Shown piece after piece: positions 7,955-17,465 of a DNA stretch of 64,000 bases. The notes under the pieces were generated by a model. It had not been told where the DNA came from. It made no database searches and was given only the letters and a program-made list of their open reading frames with translations. Source of the DNA: Escherichia phage DCP80; the sequence record PQ671644.1; one strand, given 5' to 3'. Numbering within the stretch: position 1 is the first letter of the stretch; each line of letters opens with the position of its first letter. The translations under genes and the position numbers were made by a program.

Positions 7955-8350
7955 ATGGAAATAAAAGATTCATCTACAACCAAATTTGTCCAGGAAGCAG
8001 TATTGATTTCTAATAAATCATATGGTCAACGTCGTTTTAACAGTTTCACTCAGAAAGAACAATCATTGTTCACCAAAAAGATGGGGCTTAAAACACGTGT
8101 TAGAGATAACTTTGCACCTGAAACGATTGAAGAAATAAACGCAATCTGGCGTGAACAACGAGAAGACACCGACCTTTCTGTTGGTAGTATGATTTATATC
8201 TTGATAGACGAAGATGATTTCTTTTTCTGGCGCGAGTATGAATCACCTGAAGGAAAATGGTATAAAGCTGGTAATACCACCAAATCTTATAACGGTATGC
8301 TCCGTGTAGAATTATCAATAGGGGAAGCAGATGGCAAGTTCAATTATTAA
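7955..8350 (+). CDS. Hypothetical virion-module protein (131 aa)
   Basis: ORF with an SD and a late promoter, in the head-tail connector position. Confidence 0.5.
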   Translation: MEIKDSSTTKFVQEAVLISNKSYGQRRFNSFTQKEQSLFTKKMGLKTRVRDNFAPETIEEINAIWREQREDTDLSVGSMIYILIDEDDFFFWREYESPEGKWYKAGNTTKSYNGMLRVELSIGEADGKFNY

Positions 8351-8753
8351 TTATCCACCGTTGAGCGTTAAAAAAGGCCTCGAAACTGTTATGAAACAAA
8401 TTGGTATCAAAGTTAACGTTGATTCTTATAAAGCTGATGTTAATGATGAAATCCAAGGTGTAGTAATGGGAATTCAATCCGAGTATCAAGAGCCAACTCC
8501 TATGCAGAAACACCAATTTGTTGACCTGACAGTTAACGTTGGATTGTTTACCAAACGTGATGCATTGCTGTTAGCCGAAGCCGCTGAAGAAATTAAGAAA
8601 ATCGATTTTGCACAAAAACCTTATAATGATTTGGTTGATTTCAAAGTTAACCGCATGTGGGTGTCTTCTGATACGATTGATTTCAGCGAAACAGATTCCG
8701 ATGGTAACGTACAAGCGATAATCATTTTCAATATCCAATACCTCAAAATTTAA
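8331..8753 (+). CDS. Hypothetical virion-module protein (140 aa)
   Basis: Overlaps the upstream ORF by 20 nt, with SD ggggaag. Connector or completion position. Confidence 0.5.
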   Translation: MASSIINYPPLSVKKGLETVMKQIGIKVNVDSYKADVNDEIQGVVMGIQSEYQEPTPMQKHQFVDLTVNVGLFTKRDALLLAEAAEEIKKIDFAQKPYNDLVDFKVNRMWVSSDTIDFSETDSDGNVQAIIIFNIQYLKI

Positions 8754-8759
8754 GGAGCT

Positions 8760-10859
8760 ATGATGGCTGAAGTTTTTGCAGGAACTAAAGTACGTATGGC
8801 TGTTAACGAAGACCTAACTTCTAACAGCCCTATGTACATTGACGCAGGGTATGTACCCTTAGATAATCTGGTTGCATTTCCAGAGATAACCACACAAACT
8901 GAAACATACAAAATGGAATCATATAACGAGGATTATGAGCGCGTTATATTAGGAGCATATGGTTCCGCCCCAGTTACAATCCAAGTTGCCGAAGTTGCCG
9001 ATGATGAAGCACAAGGTATCCTTGACAAGTATCTTAACTCAATGAAAATGTTACGATTCCGTATCATGTGGGTTGAAAAGGAATTACCTCCGGTTGAAGG
9101 TATGCCTGCTGAAGAACAATACAGTGGTCCAACTGCAATCTTTGATGCTTATGTGACTTCTACTCATCTGTCGGGTGGTGAAAACCAAACTGTTATTCGC
9201 AGTTATACATTATCCCCGTTTGGAAAAGTTACACGTGATGTAACAAACCTTGGTGAGTACGTTCGTCGTGGACAATATGGCGTAGGTGGTGGTACAACTG
9301 ATTATCCGGGCCCTACAGACACCAATAGTTATGAAGGTAACCGTTGGGTCAACCTGTCGGCAGCAAGCTCCCAGAACCCATTTGCGGACTCCACAGGGGC
9401 TATGACAGTACAATCAGGTGAGCAAGGTTGGGCATTAGTCGGTTCTTCAACTGGTAACATGATGCTCCGTGCCAGAAACCGTCAGCTATCACGTGTTGGT
9501 GAGTGGACCAAAATCTATACCTCCGCTGAACCACCTACTGCAGCTGAAATTGGTGCTATCCCAACAGTAGGTGATGCTTATGTACAAGGTAACTTGAAAG
9601 CAAACAGCTTCTACGTAACTGATACTGCTGGAACAACTATCACCACGCAGATTAACAAAGACGGTATCACCACTAACGTGTTGAAAATCACAGGCTCTGT
9701 TAACTCTCCTAACTCTAATATCAGCGGCACATCAACGCTTAATATTGTAACGGCGAATAAGTTAACTGCTCAGGAATTGATTTCTCCATTGGCTCGTATT
9801 GATACTGGTACAGTTACAACGTTGGGTTCAACTGATTTCACAGCTTTCGACGCAGTTGTTAATAACAAGTTGGTTGCGAAAGAAGCAGAGATTGATGATT
9901 TAACGATTAACACAAGATTCCACGTAGGTGCAGGTGCTTCGTTCCAGATTGCTGGTAACGTACAATCAGCAACTGTAACTGCAACGGATAAAGTTACAAC
10001 CAAGAACCTTGAAGTACAAGAGGTTGAAAAGGTTGGACAAGTTAACCCTAACCGTGTTTTTATTCACTCTGTAAATGAGACTCCAGAAGCATACGACTCC
10101 ATGAACACAGGTATATCGCCTAAGTTGTCGTTATCCCAAGCAGCAACATTAGTTGGATATGCAGGTGAATTTAAACCAGACGGCTCAACACTGAAAGCTT
10201 ACGAGTTTACAAACAACTTGCAACAGTTAGAAAATGCCAGAATTACCAACTTAACAGTTGTGAATGGAATTGGTGTTAATAACTTATCATTCAGTGGGGC
10301 AATCACAGCTGGTAATAGCGATGCTAAGATTTTGTTAGAAACTCCGGACCAAGTTATTGTCTCAAATGATGCAACTCCTGGAGTAGCTGCAGCTCACTGG
10401 ACTGAAATTCGAGCAGGTGTTATCTACATCGATGGTAAACCAATTTGGCACGATGGTAATATCCCTAACGTTGTACAAATGGGCGGTGTTCCATTAAATG
10501 GTAACTCAACAATAACTGGTGATGTAACTGTTAAAGGCCGTGTTTCTGCTGATTCAATGCGTGTCGGTCCAAACATTTTGATGACAACGGACCTTATAAA
10601 TATTGGTATCGGAACAATCAAAATCGGTGGACAAGAAATTTTCCATCCAGGTAACCCTCCAACTGCTGCACAATGTAAAGCTGTTCCATTAGCTGGTAAC
10701 TCGAGAATGGACGGTGAATTGACAGCTAACAAACTTTACGAGTACAACACTGTTACTTCTACACAAGAACGTGTTTTTAGCCCGTTAAACAGACCAACTG
10801 CAGCAAATGCCGGTGTTATGGTTCTGCTTGGTGACGTTATCGATTTTGGTTTAGAATAA
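8760..10859 (+). CDS. Tail-tube-like N-terminal domain fused to a long fibre with tail-fibre repeats
   Basis: The N-terminal roughly 165 aa align with the 164-aa tube protein at 13211 (FAG..V....ED.T...P..AGY..VP....AFPE...Y...Y.R). The C-terminus has repeats such as IWHDGNIPN..GGVPLNGNSTITG and IFHPGNPPTAAQ..AVPLAGNSRMDG. Confidence 0.6.
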   Translation: MMAEVFAGTKVRMAVNEDLTSNSPMYIDAGYVPLDNLVAFPEITTQTETYKMESYNEDYERVILGAYGSAPVTIQVAEVADDEAQGILDKYLNSMKMLRFRIMWVEKELPPVEGMPAEEQYSGPTAIFDAYVTSTHLSGGENQTVIRSYTLSPFGKVTRDVTNLGEYVRRGQYGVGGGTTDYPGPTDTNSYEGNRWVNLSAASSQNPFADSTGAMTVQSGEQGWALVGSSTGNMMLRARNRQLSRVGEWTKIYTSAEPPTAAEIGAIPTVGDAYVQGNLKANSFYVTDTAGTTITTQINKDGITTNVLKITGSVNSPNSNISGTSTLNIVTANKLTAQELISPLARIDTGTVTTLGSTDFTAFDAVVNNKLVAKEAEIDDLTINTRFHVGAGASFQIAGNVQSATVTATDKVTTKNLEVQEVEKVGQVNPNRVFIHSVNETPEAYDSMNTGISPKLSLSQAATLVGYAGEFKPDGSTLKAYEFTNNLQQLENARITNLTVVNGIGVNNLSFSGAITAGNSDAKILLETPDQVIVSNDATPGVAAAHWTEIRAGVIYIDGKPIWHDGNIPNVVQMGGVPLNGNSTITGDVTVKGRVSADSMRVGPNILMTTDLINIGIGTIKIGGQEIFHPGNPPTAAQCKAVPLAGNSRMDGELTANKLYEYNTVTSTQERVFSPLNRPTAANAGVMVLLGDVIDFGLE

Positions 10860-10867
10860 AATTAATC

Positions 10868-10881
10868 GGGGCTTCGGCCCC
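10868..10881 (+). terminator. C(UUCG)G hairpin (no T-run, possibly an RNA stabiliser)
   Basis: ggggcttcggcccc, 9 nt after the stop codon. Confidence 0.45.
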
Positions 10882-10898
10882 CTAAATGAGGAATTAAA

Positions 10899-13136
10899 AT
10901 GGCTGACGTACGCGCAAATTCAAAATTTAAATTTCGTAGGTCTCGTAACCCTGGTTATATCCCTAAAGCAGCAGACCTATTAGAAGGTGAACTGTTTATC
11001 AACGTTGCTGATAAAAAATTGTATACAAAAGATGAAGAAGGTGGCGTAATTATTGCTATTGGCGGTGGTTCAGGCGGCGGCGGTGGTGAATTAGGCGGTG
11101 GCGCAATTATCATTCGTCCGGAAGACGCAGTTAACAGCAGCGGCAACTTGATTCTTTCTACAACTAAAGTTGGTGAAGCTTCTTATGCTCGTGGTTTATC
11201 TGGTCTTAATATGAAAATGCAGCAATATATACCAACTGATTCAGACCCAATAAACGTTGACTCGCTTTATCTGGAGATTGGCTCCAAAACCCAACTCAAC
11301 GATGGAGCAGCCAACCCTTATGTTGAAATTCCCGGTAAATTGGCATTTGTTACATCTCGCGGAAACTCATCAGGCGTAACAACTGCATCACCTGGTGCAA
11401 CAGTAATAACTGCAAAACCTGGTGCAACATGGCACCGTGAATTTGGTACCCCTGTTGATGAATCAACACTAAAACTTGGCGACGGCACGGTCACGATTTC
11501 TTCAAAAGACATTATAATTGGTAAGAGCACATCAGATGTTTTTACAAAATCTATACAAAATAATATGGTTTATATTAACAGCCCAAATCTTATTTTAGGT
11601 GGTTCTGTTGACATTTCTGGATTAAAAACTTTAAACGGCGGCGCAACCTCAACAATTGATGTTGGTGCTTTAACTTCACAAGGTAACACAGTTGTTAAAG
11701 GTGACCTTTATGTTGAAGGTGAAATTATTTCTGGCTCCCCAACTCCAGGTCCAAAGCCTTTAGAAGACTTAGCTGGATTAAGTTTAAAATTAACATATGG
11801 TGCAACAGTTGGTACTAATATTGATGCTGGTGGTTATGTTCGTTTAAAAGACGAATTAACTGTTAAAGGTAAACAAAATACAACTGATTACGAATTTAGT
11901 ATCCAACATCGTAATCGTTCCGGTGAAGACTGGGAAGGTAACACAATTTTTTATTCAGAAACTTTCTTAAAATCAACTAATGATGTTTATTTTGTTTCAG
12001 AAATTAATGAATTTACAACTTCTGACCCAACTTATCAAAACATAAGAGCAGCTAATATCCGTGGTAGCAATGGTACCTTTAGTGGTAATTTAACTGGTTA
12101 TTATGGTGGATTCTTTGATAATAATATCACAATCAACGAAAACGGTATTAATTTAGCAAATGATTCTGGTTATTCACTTGGATTAAACTTCTTCAGTAAT
12201 AAATCTGTTGCAATCAGTCTGAAAACTGAAGCCGATGGTGCTGGTCTGGTAACCGATTATAATGCATCTTATACCAAGTTGAAAGATGATGAATTTGTTA
12301 TCGGTACCTCAATTGGTGATGGTTTTAAAGGTGTTACAATCAATAACGTTAAAGAGACAAACGCGGGCGTAACTGTTACTCCTTCCGTTTCTTCTACAAC
12401 TGTTAAACTGATTGAAGCTAACTATGGTAACTTTTCTCCATATATCAGTTCAACGTCCAACAGCATCACTATTGCACCTGATGAACAATCTAAAGTAACT
12501 TTTAGTAACACTGGTGTAGTATTTGGCCGTGAAGTTACAACTCCTGCTGTTCAATTAGGTCAGGCCAGGGTTGAGCAAACTGGTAACATCCTGGGTGGTA
12601 CATGGGGTGTAGACCTTAAGAGTTATATCAATAACCAGATTGCAAATGGATTTGTTAACGTTACAACCAACACTGTACAACTTCCTGATGCATTAATCAG
12701 TGCAGACGGTAACGTAACTGGTGGTATCTGGGGCACTGATAAGACTTTGAAAGAGTATATCGATGCTAATGCAGGCGGTGGCGGCGGTTCAGGTGGTCGT
12801 AAAGAAGCGGTTAAAGTTTGGACTGGTTCTGTATCCGGCGCGGCGAACACAAGCCCGATGACTATTACTTCTACAGAAGATGGTGACTTCCGTTGCGGTG
12901 GAAAGTTAATGCTTAAAGAATCATCTGGTGCTTGGTTAGAGTATGATTTTGATTGTCCAGATTCAGCATCACCTCCGGCTGGCACTGTTCAGTTTAACAG
13001 ACAAATCTTTTCTCAGAACACAGGCGCATCTGATATGATTCTTGCTCAGAACAGCATGTCCGGTACAAAAACTACATGGTCGCTTTACGGTCACGCTCGT
13101 AAAACATACACCGAAGCTTGGTGGCGTCCATACTGA
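10899..13136 (+). CDS. Tail fibre protein (745 aa)
   Basis: N-terminal fibre motif LLEGELFINVADKKLYTKDEEGGVI. Two Gly-rich linkers (GGGSGGGGGELGGG and AGGGGGSGG). A distinct C-terminal roughly 110-aa Cys-containing domain. Confidence 0.6.
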   Translation: MADVRANSKFKFRRSRNPGYIPKAADLLEGELFINVADKKLYTKDEEGGVIIAIGGGSGGGGGELGGGAIIIRPEDAVNSSGNLILSTTKVGEASYARGLSGLNMKMQQYIPTDSDPINVDSLYLEIGSKTQLNDGAANPYVEIPGKLAFVTSRGNSSGVTTASPGATVITAKPGATWHREFGTPVDESTLKLGDGTVTISSKDIIIGKSTSDVFTKSIQNNMVYINSPNLILGGSVDISGLKTLNGGATSTIDVGALTSQGNTVVKGDLYVEGEIISGSPTPGPKPLEDLAGLSLKLTYGATVGTNIDAGGYVRLKDELTVKGKQNTTDYEFSIQHRNRSGEDWEGNTIFYSETFLKSTNDVYFVSEINEFTTSDPTYQNIRAANIRGSNGTFSGNLTGYYGGFFDNNITINENGINLANDSGYSLGLNFFSNKSVAISLKTEADGAGLVTDYNASYTKLKDDEFVIGTSIGDGFKGVTINNVKETNAGVTVTPSVSSTTVKLIEANYGNFSPYISSTSNSITIAPDEQSKVTFSNTGVVFGREVTTPAVQLGQARVEQTGNILGGTWGVDLKSYINNQIANGFVNVTTNTVQLPDALISADGNVTGGIWGTDKTLKEYIDANAGGGGGSGGRKEAVKVWTGSVSGAANTSPMTITSTEDGDFRCGGKLMLKESSGAWLEYDFDCPDSASPPAGTVQFNRQIFSQNTGASDMILAQNSMSGTKTTWSLYGHARKTYTEAWWRPY

Positions 13137-13138
13137 TA

Positions 13139-13159
13139 GAAGGCCTTCGGGCCTTTTTC
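13139..13159 (+). terminator. C(UUCG)G hairpin plus T-run terminator
   Basis: aaggccttcgggccttttt. Confidence 0.7.
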
Positions 13160-13164
13160 AGCGT

Positions 13165-13172
13165 TATAAATA
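13165..13172 (+). promoter_or_regulatory. T4-type late promoter TATAAATA
   Basis: gTTATAAATAatattg lies 39 nt upstream of the ATG at 13211. Confidence 0.7.
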
Positions 13173-13210
13173 ATATTGTAAATTAACCCCAAATAAAAGG
13201 AAACTAAACA

Positions 13211-13705
13211 ATGTCTACATTTGATATTTTTGCAGGTTCGTATGTATCGGTTTTCATGACTGAAGACATCACTAACAAACTCCCGGCTTTCGCAGGTTAT
13301 AAATTTGTTCCAGAAACGGGTGCTTTCCCTGAATCCGGTTCAGAGCGTCAGGTAATCGATGTTCCTAACTACTCTGATAACTATAACCGTAAACTGGTTG
13401 GTCGTGGTTCTGTTCCGGCTATTGACCTTACTGTTAACTACAAAGCTGGCTCTATCCATGATACTCTTTCTAAATTGTCTGATGACGGTAAACGCTTCCA
13501 GATTAAAATTGTATACTGGATGGACGGTACTTATACTGATGGTATCGCAATCATCTATAATGGCTTCTTGAGTTCAGACCGTACAACTGGTTCTGATAGT
13601 TCTGCTGTTCAGAAAGTGTTTACGTTTGAAGTTGATGGTGGCCCGGTTGCTCGTGCTATCGTTACAGGCAGCGGTGAGAAACCTACCGAAGAGCCTATCG
13701 TTTAA
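13211..13705 (+). CDS. Major tail (tube) protein (164 aa)
   Basis: Lies immediately upstream of the chaperone pair and tape measure. Strong codon bias, own late promoter and terminator. Confidence 0.65.
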   Translation: MSTFDIFAGSYVSVFMTEDITNKLPAFAGYKFVPETGAFPESGSERQVIDVPNYSDNYNRKLVGRGSVPAIDLTVNYKAGSIHDTLSKLSDDGKRFQIKIVYWMDGTYTDGIAIIYNGFLSSDRTTGSDSSAVQKVFTFEVDGGPVARAIVTGSGEKPTEEPIV

Positions 13706-13710
13706 TGAAC

Positions 13711-13732
13711 GGGACCTTCGGGTCCCTTTTTT
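13711..13732 (+). terminator. C(UUCG)G hairpin plus T-run terminator
   Basis: gggaccttcgggtccc followed by tttttt. Confidence 0.75.
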
Positions 13733-16904: not shown

Positions 16905-17465
16905 ATGATTAACAGTAAAGAAGTTGTCTTAACAGACATGAAACTAAGCGATAACGCTCAGGTGTTTACCTCCCAAACATTTACAGGGAAGGTACAACGT
17001 CGATTCTCCGGGATTCAATATTACACGCTGAAATTCAGTGCTCAGTATAACAAAAAAGATATTGCAGTTGTTAAAAGATTTTTGACAGAGTATAGATTTG
17101 GTAAACCATTTAACCTGCCGCTTCCTAAGTACTCCGGTTCAACTAGCACGGTAACTGGTAACGTTGCTGCTGCTATTGCTGCTCCAGCTGGTTCACGAAA
17201 GGTTAAACTTTCAGGATTCACGGGTCAGCTTGATGTTGGTACGGTTATTCAATTTGCTAACCATAAAAAATTATACCAAGTTGCATCAGATACAAGAGGT
17301 AACGGTGAACTTTCTATCGTTCCTAATCTGCGAGCTGCTGTACAAGTTGGTGAATTGATTAAGTACAGGAACATCGAAGGTAGCTTTATCCTTACAACTG
17401 ACTCTGTAGAATGGCCACAAACCGAACTGCAAACTATTGAACTAGAGGCGACAGAAAACGTATGA
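16905..17465 (+). CDS. Minor tail protein (gpM position)
   Basis: First gene after the tape measure. Assigned by position only. Confidence 0.45.
   Translation: MINSKEVVLTDMKLSDNAQVFTSQTFTGKVQRRFSGIQYYTLKFSAQYNKKDIAVVKRFLTEYRFGKPFNLPLPKYSGSTSTVTGNVAAAIAAPAGSRKVKLSGFTGQLDVGTVIQFANHKKLYQVASDTRGNGELSIVPNLRAAVQVGELIKYRNIEGSFILTTDSVEWPQTELQTIELEATENV

Follow-up and report, generated by a model that had tools for sequence, protein, structure and literature searches.

We identified, in the 64,000-nucleotide stretch of DNA analysed here (the window), a protein whose N-terminal module has the tube fold and is genuinely paralogous to the tube protein of this phage. As the first-pass annotation had proposed, this module is joined to a fibre: it is covalently continuous with a genuine trimeric-type fibre, recognised by Peptidase_S74 and T4 gp36 matches in relatives. 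A fused second tube copy of this kind recurs in no fewer than 66 related loci, from uncultured phages and prophages, some of the latter in E. coli. We lean towards the view that the fused protein forms the proximal part of a side fibre anchored by a spare tube subunit, with two fibre trimers supplying a ring in the tube wall. The arrangement suggests a mode of side-fibre attachment that has not been described before, in which the anchor is built into the tube wall.

The attachment of trimeric side fibres to a six-fold tail was solved recently, for T5/DT57C in 2023 (PMC10713586) and for Ur-lambda in 2025 (PMC12617516), and in both phages it involves an external dodecameric collar. Anchoring a fibre by a tube subunit would answer the structural problem in another way. 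It would add a fibre adaptor to the uses to which the tube fold is already put, in terminators, distal tail proteins and hubs. This adaptor is modular, consisting of a tube domain, a Gly linker and a small domain, after which comes an entire fibre or else a gp36-type socket that would take a gp37-type fibre, and such a modular exchange point is of the kind used in host-range engineering.

The tube-like domain and its gene neighbourhood

The fused gene corresponds to an open reading frame at positions 8760-10859 (+ strand, 699 aa), exactly as first described. The true start is almost certainly the second ATG, at 8763 (698-aa product), because it is preceded, at a distance of 5 nt, by a strong Shine-Dalgarno sequence (AAGGAG) and the homologues start with MAEVFAG. 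Residues 1-165 (8763-9257) constitute the tube-fold domain (N-domain), and the plain 164-aa tube protein, which we presume to be the major tube subunit, is encoded downstream on the same strand (13211-13705; PHROG 158 at 2.3e-12, weak match to Pfam Phage_tail_3). The kinship of the two, initially noticed from the sequence, was upheld by BLASTP, MAFFT and HMM comparisons alike. In pairwise BLASTP, residues 1-272 of the fused protein matched the 164-aa protein at E = 2e-10 (22% identity over 149 aa), and MAFFT aligned the N-domain and the plain tube protein end to end, recovering the blocks FAG, ED.T, AGY, AFPE, Y..DY.R, RF.I and T(L/F). An HMM built from the fused N-domains of other phages matched the window's plain tube protein at 1.3e-31 and the plain tube protein of every complete related locus at 1e-28 to 1e-37.

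Among the tube families considered (PHROG 158; Pfam Phage_TTP_11/12 and Phage_tail_2/3), PHROG 158, 'major tail protein', was matched by 39 of 40 N-domains (best 3e-24; window domain 1.5e-9), and the Pfam families gave weak matches in 3-5 of the 40. The N-domain scored below the Pfam gathering threshold of any tube family (best Phage_tail_2, 13.3 versus 23.8 bits), a shortfall that we attribute to the divergence of the whole clade because the plain tube protein also falls below its cut-off (18.2 versus 24.2). Sequence searches of the PDB with the fused, 745-aa and 164-aa proteins returned no match.

Structure prediction and HMM searches, the checks named in the first-pass annotation, both relate the N-domain to tube proteins. 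The AlphaFold2 monomer model (pLDDT 78.6; an earlier model from a 4-sequence alignment, with pLDDT 50, was set aside) had lambda gpV and other siphophage tubes as its best matches, with TM 0.70-0.74 to gpV. The domain is a single, not duplicated, tube domain of ~165 aa, in which a beta-sandwich is joined by a long beta-hairpin and a peripheral helix. Throughout the clade this fold is kept in full, with neither the long ring-to-ring hairpin nor the N-terminal DIF.G strand lost.

The tail module of the window is of the lambda type, with U, V, G, T, H and J-like genes. The gene next to the fused gene on its upstream side encodes a 140-aa tail terminator of the lambda gpU type (8331-8753, + strand), and members of the same family directly precede the fused gene in 39 subfamily A loci. 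A member from an E. coli prophage matched lambda gpU in BLASTP at E = 2e-5, and hhalign of the family against the gpU alignment gave a probability of 72% and E = 3.3e-5 over 96 columns reaching both C-termini; searches of Pfam, PHROGs, NCBIfam and PDB sequences with the 140-aa protein yielded no match. We also considered the fused protein itself as the terminator and rejected this assignment because the upstream 140-aa protein is gpU-like and the N-domain profile misses gpU (E = 0.26-0.35 over 10-21 columns). For two neck proteins, of 131 and 161 aa, Pfam, PHROGs and further searches gave no identity; the family of the latter carries a weak Ig/TIG-like signal at its N-terminus. Downstream of the J-like gene, the window contains no other side-fibre genes and no recognisable collar gene.

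The G/T-like chaperone genes and the tape-measure gene come straight after the plain tube gene, and the fused gene lies not at this classic tube position but two genes further upstream. A strong terminator-like hairpin (13711-13726) follows the plain tube gene, and a similar one follows the capsid gene. The plain tube protein is more conserved than the fused copy, which is less conserved than the plain one in the hairpin and equally so in three other strands.

In an exhaustive search of representatives, 68 clusters (50% identity) carried the tube domain N-terminally, almost all of them 280-1200 aa long, and 66 loci held both the fused and the plain copy. The two kinds of copies form separate groups with 25-27% identity, and their divergences are correlated (Spearman 0.77). 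To judge by their sequences, this comparison shows that the tube gene was duplicated anciently and that the second copy has been kept beside the plain one throughout a large clade of lambda/HK97-like siphophages. Of 5426 complete E. coli genomes, 45 have prophages that encode a minimal, 277-aa form, which makes the idea directly testable; in strain CFSAN061761 (NZ_CP042903), where such a prophage lies at 2.92-2.95 Mb, this form is WP_116291653.1. The family is annotated as 'hypothetical protein' in RefSeq and has no Pfam, NCBIfam or functional PHROG name; both points apply equally to the gpU-like terminator beside the fused gene.

Among the isolated phages of INPHARED, none carries the fused tube-fibre protein; megablast and tblastn searches of 50,697 phage records with the region, N-domain, plain tube and E. 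coli 277-aa protein as queries gave no match, and two relatives (P0016 and P0005) matched phage fibres solely by their C-terminal parts. A word-indexed protein search retrieved only three close homologues when queried with the full protein and none when queried with the N-domain alone, so that the exhaustive search of representatives was required, and two scans of GTDB representative genomes found no relative. In the literature, we found descriptions neither of a tube-fibre fusion nor of fibres along siphophage tails; the sole relevant-looking match, a paper on Alishewanella LSH1, describes a different fibre attachment, itself unresolved.

Fibre segments and their likeness to T4 gp36 and gp37

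The tube-fold domain is followed by a Gly-rich linker (residues 166-180, ...RRGQYGVGGGT..., 9258-9302), in which G173 and G175 are invariant and G170 nearly so across the family alignment (59 N-domains), and residues 161-190 around it have pLDDT < 60 in the AlphaFold model. Next comes beta domain 2 (residues ~181-258, 9303-9536), with the conserved motifs GN(R/S)(W/F)..., NP and W.K(I/V)Y(T/S), the final strands of which correspond to the N-terminus of T4 gp36. Then follows the fibre shaft (residues ~259-672, 9537-10778). The motif (Y/H/F)..N.PT..(E/Q).GA.P occurs in four copies in the fused protein (residues 254, 563, 628 and 673), the first three of which are counted with the shaft, and PHROG 23676, 'tail fiber protein', matches residues 219-269. 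Homologues differ in shaft length: the 277-aa E. coli form has 0 aa, and the longest shafts reach about 900 aa. The protein closes with the C-terminal motif ...NRPTAANAGVMVLLGDVIDFGLE (10779-10859; all on the + strand), a gp36-like ending (VIDFGLE in the fused protein versus VQDFGYY in T4 gp36), and the pattern (I/V/L)D(F/L/A)G.(F/Y/E) is the ending of every member of subfamily A, the 277-aa E. coli and Proteus proteins among them.

Across the family, the conserved core comprises the tube domain, the invariant Gly-rich linker and the small beta domain. After this core comes either a complete fibre with a Peptidase_S74 chaperone, found in subfamily B, or, as in the window's subfamily, a T4 gp36-like connector ending in ...DFG. 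Conservation of the tube-fibre architecture in 66 loci argues that it is functional rather than an accident.

The second fibre gene (10899-13136, + strand) encodes a 745-aa protein, evidently a distal fibre, with a gp37-like N-terminus (residues 1-52). This N-terminus, GELFINVADKKLY, matches PHROG 1699/19966, 'long tail fiber distal subunit', and the gp37 N-termini in 967 T4-like phage records. The distinctive N-terminus, the two poly-Gly linkers and the distinct C-terminal domain that had been ascribed to this protein are all present: the poly-Gly runs span residues 55-63 and 626-633, and the separate C-terminal domain, of ~110 aa, is presumably the receptor-binding tip. In 38 loci, the fused gene is succeeded by a fibre gene of this N-terminal type. 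Between the two fibre genes lies a stem-loop without a T run, GGGGCTTCGGCCCC (10866-10882, + strand), and after the 745-aa fibre gene a stem-loop with a T run, AAGGCCTTCGGGCCTT (13141-13158, + strand), was read from the sequence.

The likeness to gp36 is clearest in relatives of the window protein, one of which (P0006) matches T4 gp36 at E = 1e-15, and another (P0018) Pfam Phage_T4_gp36 at 32 bits against a cut-off of 26. For the window's fused protein, the gp36 likeness is transitive, via the family alignment, because its own matches to T4 gp36 are short motifs only (best E = 0.018). The first-pass annotation was right to see fibre repeats in the ~530-aa part of the protein, but its assignment of these to the P2 H / lambda Stf kind fits less well than the T4 gp36/gp37 type, a label that we prefer in view of the gp36-like end of the fused protein and the gp37-like start of the 745-aa protein. 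On this sequence evidence, the two proteins probably form one two-segment fibre rather than two independent fibres.

A proposed ring in the tube wall and its alternatives

Under the explanation that we favour, the fibre would trimerise, as do S74-chaperone and gp36/gp37-type fibres, so that each fibre trimer would bear three tube domains, with the Gly-rich linkers serving as flexible tethers between tube ring and fibre. Two trimers would provide the six subunits of one hexameric ring, which would stack into the tube like an ordinary ring, and the fibres would be held by the tube wall rather than by an external collar. The C-terminal ...NRPTAANAGVMVLLGDVIDFGLE motif could be the docking end for the next fibre protein, as in T4 gp36; the 745-aa protein would dock on this ...DFG end by its gp37-like N-terminus and carry the receptor-binding tip. 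The role of such fibres might be fast reversible adsorption, comparable to that of lambda Stf and the T5 lateral fibres.

The position of the ring is the weakest step of this explanation. We somewhat favour a place adjoining the distal tail protein (encoded at 16905-17465), because side fibres would be useful there and because lambda and T5 anchor theirs there; we think it rather unlikely that the fused subunits are scattered along the tail, and unlikely that the ring lies under the terminator. The claim that a tube-fold module anchors fibres instead of their attaching through the tip complex is too strong in its second half, given that the proposed ring may share the tube/distal-tail-protein junction used in Ur-lambda and T5. 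The conservation profile of the two copies indicated no ring position, the loss in the hairpin being matched in three other strands. The lower conservation of the fused copy in several strands and in the hairpin could mean that some tube contacts are dispensable. We found nothing in the sequence that would confine the fused subunits to one position amid an excess of plain tube protein, and low expression of the fused gene cannot be assumed because of its strong Shine-Dalgarno sequence.

The fused paralogue might instead form the last head-proximal ring, under the gpU-like terminator, and its fibres would then be whisker-like neck or shoulder fibres, for long-range capture or for holding the flexible tail to the cell. 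In all loci, the fused gene lies between the terminator-like and tube genes, as this placement would predict, although tandem duplication alone would put it beside the tube gene, and the fold would fit a neck ring equally well. The tail genes of T5 run in the order terminator, tube and then the p140 tube paralogue. The spatial order of the T5 rings (PMC10713586) agrees with this gene order, which lends the neck position some support. However, an obligatory last ring would compete with the control of tail length by the tape measure and terminator. Furthermore, by analogy with the T4 distal half-fibre we assume a fibre length of roughly 70 nm, too short to get from the neck to the tip of a tail that we estimate at about 120 nm from the 804-aa tape measure; overall, we regard a neck ring as improbable. 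Similarly improbable, in our judgement, is the co-polymerisation of fused subunits with plain tube protein at many positions, in whole or 3+3 mixed rings, whereby the tail would be decorated lengthwise in an extreme version of the Ig-like decorations of lambda gpV and T5 pb6. Both stacking surfaces of the fused copy seem tube-like and show no position-fixing feature, the ribosome-binding site of its gene is strong, the minimal 277-aa form is sized like a decorated tube protein, and mixed hetero-hexameric rings of two tube-fold paralogues exist in Nocturne116 (PMC13595954). Nevertheless, dozens of 700-1200-aa fibres per tail, each with a second subunit of 745-1300 aa, would be very costly, our literature search found no such tail morphology, and the two copies have been distinct since before the clade diverged, which points to a specialised rather than an interchangeable role.

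The roles of the two copies could also be reversed, with the fused protein as the major tube subunit and the plain 164-aa protein as a minor ring, like T5 p140. In T5, the p140 gene comes after the decorated tube gene pb6, an order that this reading would parallel. Yet it is the plain copy that directly precedes the chaperone and tape-measure genes, is followed by a strong terminator-like hairpin as the capsid gene is, and is the more conserved, and about 180 copies per tail of a 700-1200-aa S74-chaperone fibre seem implausible; we give this reading very little credence. We also doubt strongly that the tube-like domain acts outside the tube wall, be it as a plug-in adaptor on the tail exterior or tip complex, or as a decoy or chaperone used only in assembly. 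The domain is less constrained than the plain tube protein and falls below the Pfam tube thresholds, as might be expected of such a role, but a complete fold, with hairpin and DIF.G strand kept clade-wide, is hard to explain outside a ring.

More speculatively, and in our estimate not very likely, pre-trimerised fibres might bring their tube domains in threes, as half-rings that nucleate the first ring on the distal tail protein; such nucleation would couple fibre assembly mechanically to the start of tube polymerisation. On this reading, the DNA conduit could not do without the side fibres, which would bear load as part of it rather than serve as accessories. It would amount to a third solution, not seen before, to the 6-fold/3-fold problem beside those of lambda and T5, and would be widespread in uncultured siphophages of enterobacteria and other gamma-proteobacteria.

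Comparison with known fibre anchors

One close parallel is the distal half of the T4 long tail fibre, gp36-gp37, with which the family shares a gp36-like segment (in relatives of the window protein), a ...DFG(Y/F/E) end and a gp37-like gene that follows. In T4, gp36 is linked via gp35 to gp34 and thence to the baseplate of a contractile tail, whereas in the present family the tail is non-contractile and the gp36-like part continues from a tube domain. Gene position also differs from that of lambda stf: the stf gene is located after J, and the fused gene lies between U-like and V-like genes.

Ur-lambda side fibres attach at the tube/distal-tail-protein junction via the external collar (PMC12617516), and T5 side fibres are likewise attached at this junction by an external collar (PMC10713586). 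Ur-lambda gpStf (PMC12617516; PDB 9MGH, 9E7M) resembles the fused protein in having N-terminal globular anchors on short flexible linkers and a trimeric-type fibre, and gpStfN shows that a trimeric fibre can carry three anchor domains, each on a linker of ~10 residues (PMC12617516). Its anchors form a closed ring coaxial with the tail, and the same is proposed here. The Ur-lambda anchor, however, is a small six-stranded beta-sheet, present in 12 copies outside the gpV/gpM junction, whereas the anchor here is a tube paralogue in a proposed six-membered ring; the fused protein does not show the gpStfN collar type (~90-aa six-stranded sheet plus helix, 12-mer).

In T5/DT57C, TTMP and LtfC set a precedent for a ring of tube paralogues as a fibre platform (PMC10713586). 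T5 p140/TTMP is, like the N-domain, a tube-fold paralogue distinct from the major tube protein, but it has a duplicated tube fold, forms a trimeric ring and is not fused to a fibre, whereas the domain described here is single and continuous with the fibre. The N-termini of the T5/DT57C fibres (LtfA/pb1) are held by a separate dodecameric collar of LtfC (p132); no collar-like gene was recognised in the tail module of the window, as judged without a dedicated p132 search.

Decorated tubes, namely those of lambda gpV with its Ig domain, SPP1 gp17.1* and T5 pb6, share with the fused protein a tube domain bearing an outward C-terminal extension. In these phages, the extension is a small Ig/FN3 domain, borne by all or many subunits of the major tube protein or of its frameshift or duplicated version; here, in contrast, a separate gene carries a fibre of 100-1000 aa alongside an undecorated major tube gene.

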